From contig CAWHXP010000003.1 in the NCBI GenBank assembly GCA_963833425.1, positions 544,001 to 608,000 of the forward strand: DNA of 64,000 bases. The letters run 5' to 3'. This DNA is from an uncultured Methanosarcinaceae archaeon (lineage in GTDB: Archaea > Halobacteriota > Methanosarcinia > Methanosarcinales > Methanosarcinaceae). The first letter of the stretch is position 1. The number at the start of each line of letters is the position of its first letter. Both the position numbers and the translations under genes were made by a program. Shown here one piece after another: positions 7,191 through 10,523 of this stretch. The notes beneath the pieces were generated by a model. The model ran no database searches. It worked only from the letters and a program-made list of their open reading frames with translations, and had not been told where the DNA came from.

Positions 7191-8330
7191 GTGAAACAGG
7201 AAAACGATTTCATAGTTTTTCATGGTAATCTGCAACAGTTAATGGAAAAAGTGGAAACTGGAGAGATGATCCCCAAGCTTCAGGCTTCCCACTCTCCAAT
7301 GTGCAAATTTTTTTACAGCCTATTACGTCATCAGCGGGATCCGTCATGTAGTTCCCCTGGTCCACGGTCCGACCGGGTGTCCGCTGTACATGTCAGATTT
7401 TGTAAGGACACGGGAATGCTGCGAGATCCGTGGAGTTCCATTAGAACCCACAGCTTGCACCTCGCTAGACGAAAGCTATGTCATACGGGGGTGAGGGAAA
7501 ACTACTGGAAGCAGTAAAGGAAGCATACGCTAAGTACCACCCAATCTCATCGTCATTCTCTCTTGCTGCTGCTCCGGGATCATCGGTGATGACGTCGAAA
7601 GCATTGCTCGCGAGGCAGAGAAGTTGGTTGGCTGCCGGGTGCTTTGACTGGGGACAGAAGCTGGGTGACTTGATGCAAGAACGGTTTTCGGCATTCCTTA
7701 CAGCCAGACTGGGCAGCCCTATGGCCCTGAGGCCACAAAGGAATGGCTGCTCGGCGTGGCAACACCTCTTGGCATGGAGGCAGCAGCTATTAAAGTGATT
7801 AAACGAGAGATGCAGGAAGTAGAACCGGGAATTGCATATTTAAGACAGGCTCTCTCCGAAAAAACGGCTATTGTAGAAATATCGGAATTTCCAGGGCCTA
7901 TACGAGCGCTTTCCATGCACTGATGGCAGCAGAGTTTGGTGCCCATCCTGTCGTGATCAACGTCCATCCATATACAATCAAGGAACGTATGCCCAGCATC
8001 AAGTTTCTCCTGGAAACCGGGGTTAACCCGGAGATTATTCTGACAAAAGGACTCTTCCGGCTAGGGAGCCTTCGATCGTCCAAAGAGACCGAGGCCGAGC
8101 TAGAGGCGATTGTTAAGGAATATGATAACCCTATCTTCTTTGGGAATTCAGGCCGGTTTCCTCCCTGTCCAGTGGTGAACTTAACACTCATGAACCCATC
8201 GTTTCAGCCCCAGTACGGCTTCCGGGGAATTAGGAACATCTCCGCTCTAGTCAGACAGGCACTTGAGAACAAAGATCTCCTCCGCTCTCGATTGTTTAAG
8301 GGGATGCTCTATGGAACAAGGAAATTTTAA
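7191..8330 (+). pseudogene. Nitrogenase component-1-like subunit (NifD/E-like, Group IV), frameshifted and internally deleted
   Basis: Across frames: SHSPMCKFF, PLVHGPTGC, CTSLDE, GGEGKLLEAV, ILSCCCSGIIGDDVE, QPYGPEAT..WL and PQYGFRG. Confidence 0.8.
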
Positions 8331-9668
8331 GGAAACTGCTGGGCCATCAACGTCTTCCTCGGAGACGCGCACCGACCCATACCTTCGGTGTGCTTTCAAC
8401 GGTGCCGCCCTGACTGCACTTGGAGTCTCTCGTTCTGCACTCCTTGCTCATTCCCCGCAAGGATGTGAGTATCTAGTCAACAATGCATTTGCCTCGCAGG
8501 AGTGCGACTATATGGAAACAATGACCATCTGTACCAAGCTCTGCGTGGACGAGATCGTGTATGGTGGAGAGGACATCCTTGCCCGCACAATCCTGGAGGT
8601 AAAAGATCTCTCGATCTCTGCCTTTTTCGTGCTTAGTGTATGTGGGCCCGAAATTGTGGGCGACTATATTGTAGCGGTATGCGAGGCCCTGCAGCCAGAA
8701 GTGAAGTTCCGACTAGTTCCGATTGAATGTGCAGGGTTCCGAGGATCGCAGTACGATGATATCGACATCGCGATGGATACGATACTAAAAAAGCTGGTAA
8801 AAGACGACGTAGATAAAGTATCTGGTTCTGTCTGCCTTGTAGCTCCCCATGCCAATGCCAATCCGACATGGCCAGCAGGTCTGGCATGGGTGAAACAGGT
8901 TCTTTATCGGATGGGCATTAAGGTTGTAGCCACGCTCACACACCAGACTCCAATTTCTGAAATCGAAAACATCGCATCCGCTGAGCCCTCCTTCCTGCTG
9001 AGCCATGATGCTGGTCAGAAAGCATCAGATTACCTTTTTGCGAGTATGACATCGAGTAGATATGTAAAGGGATACCCTTGCCAATAGGGATGACAAACAC
9101 GCAGCTTTGGCTGACAGTTCTAGGAGAGCGATTCGATGTGGTGAAAAAGGTGGAGGAGATCGTTGCAGAAGGCGAAAGGATGGTGATGGCAACTTGTCGA
9201 CGTAAGTGGCCGATGGCGAGGTTTCTGTACCGGACTCCGATAGCTATTGTTGCCGATGCAACAGTCGGGATTCCTCTAGTCCGGTTTGTCACCGAGGAGA
9301 TGGAGATGACCCCGGAGCTTGTTGCCTTGTATACCTCGCAGAAGCCGAGTCGGGAACTTCTGGAGTTGGAACTCCAGAGCCTCGGGCTCAATCCGAAAAT
9401 CGTTTACGGAACAGACGTGTATAAAACACGGAAGAGTCTACTTGATGTCAGGCCACGGGTTGTGTTCGGTAGCACCATCGAAAGGCATGCCAGTGAGGGA
9501 CTTCCCGTGGCCTATGTTGTCGAGGTAGTTAGGATGATTCGCCAGTTTAGGATGATCAATCGGGAATACTTCGGATATACAGGCATATTAAATCTATTCG
9601 AGTGCGTTCAGAACGAGTGGACTATGGGATGGCGTTCGAAAGAAAGAAGATATGAAGCAAAATGGTGA
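8311..9668 (+). pseudogene. Nitrogenase component-1-like subunit (NifK/N-like, Group IV), at least one frameshift near 9050-9080
   Basis: LRCAFNGA, AHSPQGC, VYGGED, SVCGPEIVGD, PIGMTNT..WL and YFGYTG motifs, split over ORFs 8263-9087 and 9078-9668. Confidence 0.85.
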
Positions 9669-9674
9669 CGGCAT

Positions 9675-10523
9675 ATGAGACAGATCGCTATCTATGGCAA
9701 AGGGGGGGCATCGTGAAGAGCACGATAACTTCAAACCTGTCTGCCGCATTACATGCGATGGGGCACACGGTAATGCAGGTAGGATGTGATCCAAAGAGAG
9801 ATTCGACGAAGGATCCTTCCAGAGGGAAAGTTTATTCCCGCGGTACTGGAAGAGCACCGAGAATAGCTGAGGTTAGGAAAAGACGAATATGCAATAAATT
9901 TGAACAAACCAGTCTTCAAATAACCCAGTCGGATCTACCTTGTCGAAGCGGGAGGACCGGAACCGGGTATTGTGTATGCTGGTCGAGGTGTGCTTACCTC
10001 ACTGCAAATCCTAAAGGACCTCAAGGCGTTTTCGACCTACAACATCGACGTGGCAATTTACGATGTCCTCGGTGACGTCGTATGTAGTGAATTCTCGATG
10101 CCTATCCGCGAAGGGTTTGCAAAAGAAATTTATCTCATCTGTTCTGGCGGTTTTATGAGTATCTATGCTGCAAACAACATTGCTAGGGCGGTGTAGCGCC
10201 TCGCAAAGCGGGAGGATACCGGCCTCGCAGGGATTATCTGCAACAGCAATGGTAATGAAGCATTTGAGCATGCAGTCATCCCAGCTTTTGCAAAAAAGCT
10301 GGGGACCCCATTTGTCCAGTTTGTCCCCCGGAGTTCCGTGATCCAGGCATGTGAACTGGAAGGGAAACCTGTTGTGGAGCATTCCCCAGATTCACTAGAA
10401 GCGAAAATATTTCGGAACCTTGCAAAAGCGATAATGGAAAATGATTCGCTGGTGATCCCAACGCCAGTGAACGACTTTGCCGAGCTTGAAATGATATACA
10501 GGCAGCATCTGGTGAAGATTTAA
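9675..10523 (+). pseudogene. NifH/BchL/CfbC-family Fe-protein (reductase), disrupted
   Basis: [35 protein letters not shown] (Cys replaced by Tyr), YDVLGDVVC and GLAGIICN motifs; frameshifts and stops. Confidence 0.9.

Follow-up and report, generated by a model that had tools for sequence, protein, structure and literature searches.

A 64,000-nucleotide stretch of the genome of a Methanosarcinaceae archaeon (C3:544001-608000; below, the window) carries the remains of a nitrogenase-like gene cluster, made up of two component-1 genes, D and K, and a NifH-type gene, H. One way to understand this cluster is to regard it as the dead remnant of an acquired and duplicated block, whose intact counterparts encode a stand-alone ATP-dependent reductase; for this explanation as a whole a probability of roughly 60% seems appropriate. 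The genome (G000; 4.07 Mb in 21 contigs, with a guanine-plus-cytosine (GC) content of 35.8%) encodes McrA, NifB, an intact nifHDKEN cluster, and CfbD with an adjoining CfbC-type gene; the host is therefore a methanogen. A scan of one genome per species returned 80 loci related to D-K-H, with the core recognised in 78; the nearest lie in metagenome-assembled genomes (MAGs) of Methanosarcinaceae.

The D-K-H pseudogenes and their second copy

Three consecutive genes occupy positions 7181-10523 of the + strand, and Pfam matches them only as fragments in several frames. They are listed here with an upstream exporter pair and with the tract shared with another contig, C4; L061 is an intact ortholog in a Methanosarcinaceae MAG.

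5295..6249, + strand: ATP-binding cassette (ABC) transporter ATPase, DrrA-like, pseudogene (PF00005; about 90% nucleotide identity to L061:6754-7710)
6218..7002, + strand: ABC-2 type permease, pseudogene (PF01061; 83% nucleotide identity to L061:7679-8464)
7181..8330, + strand: D, alpha-type component-1 pseudogene (PF00148 fragments, 7270-7923)
8263..9668, + strand: K, beta-type component-1 pseudogene (PF00148 fragments at 8251-9668, E=3.9e-37 and 3.6e-20 in two frames)
9675..10523, + strand: H, NifH-type Fe-protein pseudogene (PF00142, three fragments, 9656-10523)
7236..10516, no strand: homogenised tract (counterpart about C4:29406-26126)

A first-pass annotation, made from the letters of the DNA alone, had described two component-1-like genes followed by a NifH-like gene, and had taken them for a heteromeric nitrogenase-like set. 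Both points are borne out: the Pfam matches run PF00148, PF00148, PF00142, and two PF00148 subunits encoded together with a PF00142 ATPase are the mark of the nitrogenase-like superfamily. NCBIfam models give sub-threshold matches to nifE, nifD, nifH and CfbC only. The cysteine motifs then quoted are all present in the translations (SPMCKFF, HGPTGC and SCCCSG in D; RCAF, SPQGC and SVCG in K), and the D pseudogene still displays its three P-cluster Cys motifs and the equivalent of NifD Cys275 (CFDWGQ). Three further remarks of the same annotation stand: the block is richer in GC than its surroundings (47-51% in D-K-H, against 35.8% for the genome); other nif genes are absent nearby, as the window holds no further PF00148 match and NifB lies on another contig; and the histidine that binds the iron-molybdenum cofactor (FeMo-co) is missing, no His being aligned with NifD His442.

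The lesions were mapped by nucleotide alignment to L061, which is about 90-92% identical. D has six indels (+1 at 7308, -2 at 7484, -1 at 7543, -287 nucleotides at 7638, +2 at 7684 and -1 at 7916), the largest of which takes out codons about 154-250. K lacks one nucleotide at 9042, which shifts the frame, and its codon 266 has gone from CAG to TAG. H has two insertions (+2 at 9702, +1 at 9809), nonsense codons at 63, 82 and 173, and invariant residues altered by missense mutations: Tyr replaces Cys100, a ligand of the [4Fe-4S] cluster, and Val replaces a P-loop Gly (GKGGIVKS). The sum for D-K-H is nine indels and four nonsense codons; with the loss of the cluster ligand of H, this confirms the earlier view that the copy is non-functional. 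The ABC pair upstream of D (5295-7002) is broken as well. The ATPase gene lacks one nucleotide each at 5409 and 5853 (-1 frameshifts) and has stops at codons 58 and 112; the permease gene lacks one at 6387 and has stops at codons 111 and 223, which makes three frameshifts and four nonsense codons for the pair.

Could the frameshifts be errors of assembly or sequencing, in an operon that is truly intact in the cell? The assembly is apparently long-read (21 contigs despite about 100 copies of insertion sequences, or IS) and only 80% complete, and several indels lie in or beside homopolymer runs, such as T7 at 7308 and G7 at 9702. The idea is nevertheless largely refuted, and hardly credible. Contigs of a public run (X1), possibly the source sample and built independently of the assembly, match the window with 0 differences over 7237-7574, 7618-7782, 8909-9235, 9758-9950 and 9927-10199; these stretches span three small D indels, the 287-nucleotide junction with the insertion at 7684, the K frameshift and the H lesions, and parts of the locus (7896-8854, for example) are left uncovered by the run. 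Moreover, indel errors would not account for the four nonsense substitutions or for H having lost its cluster-ligand Cys. Open reading frames (ORFs) near the locus are intact at 1275 amino acids (3.8 kb) and 934 amino acids (2.8 kb), which makes a high indel error rate unlikely; together with the lesions reproduced in X1, they render assembly error untenable.

A second copy of the block is found on C4, in the order ABC ATPase, ABC-2 permease, D, K, H, TPMT-like methyltransferase, amidohydrolase. The cluster had been called an orphan, a term that does not fit: the upstream ABC-2 exporter pair belongs to the same block, and the block exists twice. All nine D-K-H indels are common to the two copies, and within the tract 7236-10516 these differ at just 6 positions over some 3.28 kb, which makes them 99.8% identical; the flanks (ABC genes upstream, amidohydrolase downstream) reach only 77-91%. 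The ABC ATPase and permease are intact on C4 and broken in the window; the TPMT-like methyltransferase has one frameshift on C4 and is deleted in the window, where an O-methyltransferase occupies the site that it holds in C4 and relatives. The near-identical tract and the shared indels, set against the diverged flanks, speak for a recent overwriting of D-K-H. Most likely, to judge from this pattern, there are two old paralogous loci (flanks about 85% identical), across which a dead D-K-H allele was recently copied by a gene-conversion-type exchange.

Horizontal acquisition, which had been put forward as a possibility, looks real. The cluster exceeds its flanks in GC not only here but also in four other Methanosarcinaceae loci (L061, L021, L023, L062). 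A tree of D and K together, built from the 51 loci with both genes full length (29 of 80 were dropped) and rooted on a pair from the V-nitrogenase (vnf) operon that is treated below, places the Methanosarcinaceae as one clade inside Methanoregulaceae, with a value of 98 in the Shimodaira-Hasegawa-like approximate likelihood ratio test (SH-aLRT); two Methanothrix rows are nested there likewise, and the base is formed by Chloroflexota and a Bathyarchaeota row. The D gene is found in only 3 of 25 genomes of the same genus, G000 counted (G000, G005 and G019), and all three copies have lesions; that of G019 (L099) bears a set different from that of the window and equally heavy. Loci L021, L061, L023 and L062 look intact. 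This distribution suggests that D-K-H was lost repeatedly within Methanosarcinaceae. The lesions of L099 comprise four frameshifts and a stop in K, one frameshift each in D and H, and a stop in the methyltransferase gene. Independently broken Methanosarcinaceae copies, with differing lesions, are L099/L101 (G019), L022, L052 and those of G005 (L102/L108).

Intact orthologs and their nearest relatives

Intact orthologs, named by the first-pass annotation as the proper target, occur in many microbes of peat and sediment and form one tight clade. The 80 loci are archaeal (Methanoregula, Methanolinea, other Methanomicrobiales, Methanosarcinaceae, Methanothrix, Methanolliviera, unclassified Halobacteriota and Bathyarchaeia) and bacterial (Dehalococcoidia, Anaerolineae and one Acidobacteriota MAG); a protein search added Methanoculleus and the cultured Methanocella paludicola SANAE, whose D ortholog is 82% identical. 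Among the matches listed in that search, D identity is 64-92% across archaeal and bacterial phyla. In a set of 1.84 billion representatives clustered at 50% identity, the matches listed with more than 50% identity to D are one full-length protein and short fragments; the next full-length matches listed stand at 39% and 35%. Contigs of an RNA library (X15; about 92% identity) cover D and H parts of relatives, which is no proof of transcription.

Nitrogenase genes are absent from the 80 loci. Among five chromosome-level hosts, a NifB-like gene is present in every one, and in four no nitrogenase alpha subunit passes the family cut-off. For Methanocella paludicola, the accessible part of the genome paper reports nifH homologs only and no nifDK. 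A NifB-like radical-SAM gene (TIGR01290, 261 bits) directly follows H in 10 loci, nine of them in Chloroflexota and one in Bathyarchaeota. No published description of the D-K-H clade was found in the literature searched, including that on Methanoregula, Methanocella, Dehalococcoidia and Bathyarchaeota. A bioRxiv paper of 2023 says, in the part available, only that methanogens hold further nitrogenase-like proteins of unknown function. The supplement of a 2026 mBio study has zero entries with 'Methano', 'Dehalococc' or 'Anaerolin'; its published test set therefore omits the clade.

The residues that hold metal clusters in nitrogenase are nearly all conserved. In D, Cys42, Cys67, Cys131 and Cys251, which align with NifD Cys62, Cys88, Cys154 and Cys275, are kept in 111-112 of 112 sequences; in K, Cys43, Cys68 and Cys127, the equivalents of NifK Cys70, Cys95 and Cys153, in 61 of 61; and in H the cluster cysteines Cys100 and Cys136 in 58 of 58. 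The conserved D and K cysteines also align with Cys in the host's own NifD and NifK. The column of NifD His442 holds His in the host's NifD (IHSYDY), and Thr or Leu in the D family. Further invariant residues, absent from the host's NifK and NifD, are four Cys of the K family (positions 36, 90, 94 and 140 of L061 K; 61 sequences, L021-L100) and Cys81, Cys233, His38, His56 and His359 of the D family; these could be ligands of an additional or altered cluster.

Phylogeny was examined with FastTree (116 sequences) and IQ-TREE (55 sequences, LG+C20, SH-aLRT), with reference sets that held no Group IV-A, D, E or F members. Both trees keep the D family apart as a clade of its own, with the MarD-like proteins, NifD/VnfD/NifE and CfbD elsewhere. 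Trees and scores together place the clade outside NifDK/EN, CfbD and Mar, as the first-pass annotation had supposed. The sisters of D are the protein P0121 and a clade of proteins encoded right after vnfH-I1-I2-D-G-K in two complete genomes of the same genus (G004/L116 and G015/L117). The sister relationship to this vnf-operon pair is supported by SH-aLRT values of 99 (D) and 100 (K), with full-length identities of 37% and 38-39%, respectively.

The Methanosarcina 'VnfE/VnfN' pair is thus the closest relative in sequence of D and K alike, in well-supported joint clades. In the alpha-type subunit the likeness includes three P-cluster-aligned Cys, the Cys275-equivalent, the family-specific Cys233 and His359, and the N-terminal region. 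The settings differ: the pair lies inside the V-nitrogenase operon, has no H of its own and is presumed to be a cofactor scaffold, whereas D-K-H is a free-standing set whose hosts mostly have no nitrogenase. In its accessible part, a bioRxiv paper on M. acetivorans names the pair VnfEN scaffold proteins; as far as seen, the role is assigned by position and not by assay. The pair scores about 151 bits on the NifE model, for which the cut-off is 505. It is also closer to the D-K family than to canonical NifEN. Garcia et al. (2022) describe, in the portion available, early-diverged VnfE clades of ambiguous context, which may or may not include the Methanosarcina pair.

Among characterised systems, the methylthio-alkane reductase MarBHDK of Rhodospirillum rubrum (Group IV-C; PDB 9FMG and 9D9U, identified as Mar in a figure legend of a 2026 Chemical Reviews article) offers a parallel in architecture: as far as the accessible descriptions go, it is a two-component ATP-dependent system, D2K2 plus H2. 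Mar needs NifB or MarB and has a P-cluster-type cluster, a NifB-derived cofactor on the Cys275-equivalent, and no His442, according to the available part of the same review. In sequence the distance is considerable. D is about 30% identical to MarD and belongs to a clade separate from the MarD-like proteins, including one encoded on contig C16 of the host; against solved structures it scores 120 bits on Clostridium pasteurianum NifD, 116 bits on R. rubrum MarD (9FMG_A) and 102 bits on a NifEN fusion. H is about equally close to NifH (287 bits) and MarH (280 bits). Gene order is D-K-H(-B) here and B-H-D-K in Mar.

NifHDK and NifEN belong to the same Pfam families, and the six P-cluster Cys and Cys275 are present here too. 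They differ in that D-K-H has no His442, has no linked nifEN, nifI or G subunit, and falls far under the cut-offs of the NCBIfam nif models: nifD gives 126 bits (cut-off 653), TIGR01862 gives 145 (486), nifN gives 30-50 (327), and nifE, the best NCBIfam match of D, gives 159.6 (505). CfbCD (Group IV-B, coenzyme F430 synthesis) is likewise a nitrogenase-like system of methanogens, and H reaches 332 bits on the CfbC model; however, CfbD consists of one short subunit (about 370 amino acids), where D-K-H has two different ones, and D gives 44 bits on the CfbD model TIGR03282 (cut-off 268). The host's own intact CfbD gives 561 bits on that model, and the adjoining CfbC-type gene 400.8, just under its cut-off of 402. 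Of the DPOR/COR models (Group V; BchN, BchB, BchY and BchZ), the best is BchB, with 104 bits for K (cut-off 490). The isethionate reductase (IV-F) and Group VI diverge at the P-cluster and FeMo-co Cys, as described in the accessible part of the 2026 review; the present family, which keeps all of these, is set apart from them by that description only. An N-terminal stretch R-L-G-x-[IV]-T-x-Y, read by eye in three NflD rows (Groups E, A and D) in the portion of the mBio supplement consulted, is absent from all 116 tree sequences, the D family included, which is a weak hint against placement in these groups.

A proposed stand-alone reductase and its rivals

In the explanation favoured here, the acquired block would have comprised the ABC ATPase, the ABC-2 permease, D, K, H and the TPMT-like methyltransferase (deleted here), in an IS-rich Methanosarcinaceae host; it would have come to be present twice (C3 and C4), the dead D-K-H segment being copied from one locus onto the other. 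The intact set would be a two-component ATP-dependent reductase, nitrogenase- or Mar-like: electrons would pass from an Fe-protein dimer (H2), bearing a [4Fe-4S] cluster, to a D2K2 core. As judged from the conserved residues and the NifB linkage, that core most likely holds a P-cluster-type cluster and a NifB-derived cofactor on the D Cys275-equivalent, with no His ligand. A stand-alone reductase is the likeliest role because four of the five chromosome-level hosts have no nitrogenase.

The substrate can only be guessed at. It might be a small organo-sulfur or other carbon-heteroatom compound. Once this is reduced, the linked TPMT-like methyltransferase might methylate the product, the ABC-2 exporter might remove it, or both, a fate that is only weakly indicated. 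Neighbours of the core were counted out to 4 kb in the 78 loci. A TPMT/TehB-like methyltransferase is found in 15, an ABC-2 permease in 9 and a NifB-like gene in 10; the 117 immediate neighbours include 10 methyltransferase, 10 NifB-like, 6 ABC-2 permease and 3 FMN-reductase-like genes, the remainder being heterogeneous. The closest solved relatives of the TPMT-like methyltransferase act on small molecules: an M. acetivorans methyltransferase, the toxin methyltransferase Rv0560c, a thiol methyltransferase and a methyl chloride transferase. In three Methanoregulaceae loci an FMN-reductase/flavodoxin-like gene (PF03358) lies directly upstream of D; it shares the strand of D in L046 and is on the other strand in L027 and L028. 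Its product is a candidate electron donor for H.

Several points weigh against this account. The nearest relatives have been named maturases (VnfEN), and the best NCBIfam match of D is NifE, not NifD. Neither a methyltransferase nor an exporter is near about 60 of the 78 loci; the pathway guess thus draws on a minority of genomes. The X1 contigs are short and cannot be assigned to C3 or C4, and the homogenised tract may reflect a recent segmental replacement, or consensus homogenisation in a polishing step, instead of gene conversion. Finally, the single frameshifts in the MAGs L022 and L052 could be sequencing errors.

A second perspective supposes that the intact D-K-H set is a metallocofactor maturase or scaffold, like NifEN or VnfEN with NifH, which takes NifB-co and finishes or stores a cluster for another protein. 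Earlier annotation did not consider this role; it is a live rival because the 'VnfEN' pair are the nearest relatives of the family. The sister relationship holds for both subunits (37-39% identity, SH-aLRT 99 and 100) to a pair encoded right after vnfH-I1-I2-D-G-K and called a VnfEN scaffold in the available part of the M. acetivorans paper; D scores best on the NifE model; His442 is missing, as in NifE; and NifB is linked. Even so, a maturase is unlikely. Four of the five chromosome-level hosts have no nitrogenase to mature, and the set has its own H gene. NifN keeps only one P-cluster Cys; K keeps all three. The 'VnfEN' pair itself, far under the NifE cut-off, owes its role to its position.

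That the family is instead a divergent methylthio-alkane reductase (MAR; IV-C Mar), or another lettered Group IV system (Nfa, Isr), is quite improbable. The D-K-H(-B) architecture, Cys275 without His442 and an ecology of anoxic soils would all suit a Mar enzyme. The score of D on MarD is nonetheless no better than that on C. pasteurianum NifD, and the host's own C16 protein, of 514 amino acids, reaches 242 bits against R. rubrum MarD (PDB 9FMG) and falls in a different clade. The R-L-G-x-[IV]-T-x-Y stretch is missing from the D family, and the accessible part of the mBio paper reports no MAR activity in groups other than IV-C.

The reductase proposal can be carried one step further, on speculative ground: the intact family would be a new branch of NifB-cofactor enzymes, cleaving a carbon-heteroatom bond in a small compound of anoxic peat and sediment, with the product methylated by a dedicated TPMT-like enzyme, and the Methanosarcina 'VnfEN' would come from the same lineage. 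Such an extension is doubtful. If it is true, either the archaeal V-nitrogenase took over a catalytic nitrogenase-like enzyme as its maturase, or the 'VnfEN' are not maturases.

Neighbouring genes, host genome and wider meaning

Downstream of H, the window holds two intact genes and a mobile element that bounds the block; an IS lies further on.

10656..11249, - strand: O-methyltransferase, intact (PF01596; GC 36.5%, native-like; not a conserved partner)
11460..12521, + strand: amidohydrolase, intact (PF04909, E=9.6e-41; GC 46.6%; not a conserved partner)
12840..13695, no strand: short repeated mobile element bounding the block, 856 bp (46 near-full and 25 partial copies in the genome)
34230-35367: IS with DUF772 transposase, 1138 bp (56 near-full and 19 partial copies in the genome)

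The first-pass annotation had looked to the neighbours for a small-molecule modification or detoxification pathway, and the hint survives in part. Of the three classes of neighbour then named, only the ABC-2 exporter recurs at other loci, whereas homologs of the amidohydrolase, the O-methyltransferase, the hydantoinase and the adenine deaminase of the window occur within 10 kb at 0 of 80 loci. The window O-methyltransferase, of which C4 keeps a 37-amino-acid remnant only, is not conserved; the methyltransferase that recurs is TPMT/TehB-like, deleted here and frameshifted on C4. The amidohydrolase has an intact C4 paralog (85.6% amino acid identity) and belongs to the duplicated block of this genome. 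The neighbours thus point weakly to a small-molecule context, in part of the family.

Other features of the genome were observed in passing. Only 28 ORFs of at least 150 amino acids are found in the 64 kb of the window, and gene decay seems widespread. The 856-bp element and the 1138-bp IS are both massively amplified in the genome. Peptidase M13 fragments lie at 58611-60744 of the window, with paralogous copies on C2 and C15 at 82-85% identity, and Rfam has no match anywhere in the window. A second, intact nitrogenase-like system is encoded at C16:87436-91597 (L006, L007, L012), with component-1 genes of 514 and 480 amino acids and a NifH-type gene (310 amino acids) transcribed divergently from them; from its likeness to MarD, this system may be the methanogen's working Mar-like enzyme. 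A further D/K-like pair, at C8:260562-262954 (L005, L008), has no adjoining H gene; its second gene, of just 309 amino acids, is apparently truncated, and the pair falls in the same clade as that of C16.

The functions of the remaining nitrogenase-like clades are the field's main open problem, according to the conclusions of the 2026 Chemical Reviews article in the form available. The clade described here is unusually well defined, and one of its hosts, M. paludicola SANAE, is cultured; its function is therefore directly testable. Intact orthologs, and their link to the vnf-operon pair, are what gives the locus its value. The window adds an evolutionary point, in that a dead allele appears to have been written over its paralog. 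The sister link to 'VnfEN' bears on the kinship of nitrogenases and their maturases, and on whether the Methanosarcina pair are real scaffolds.

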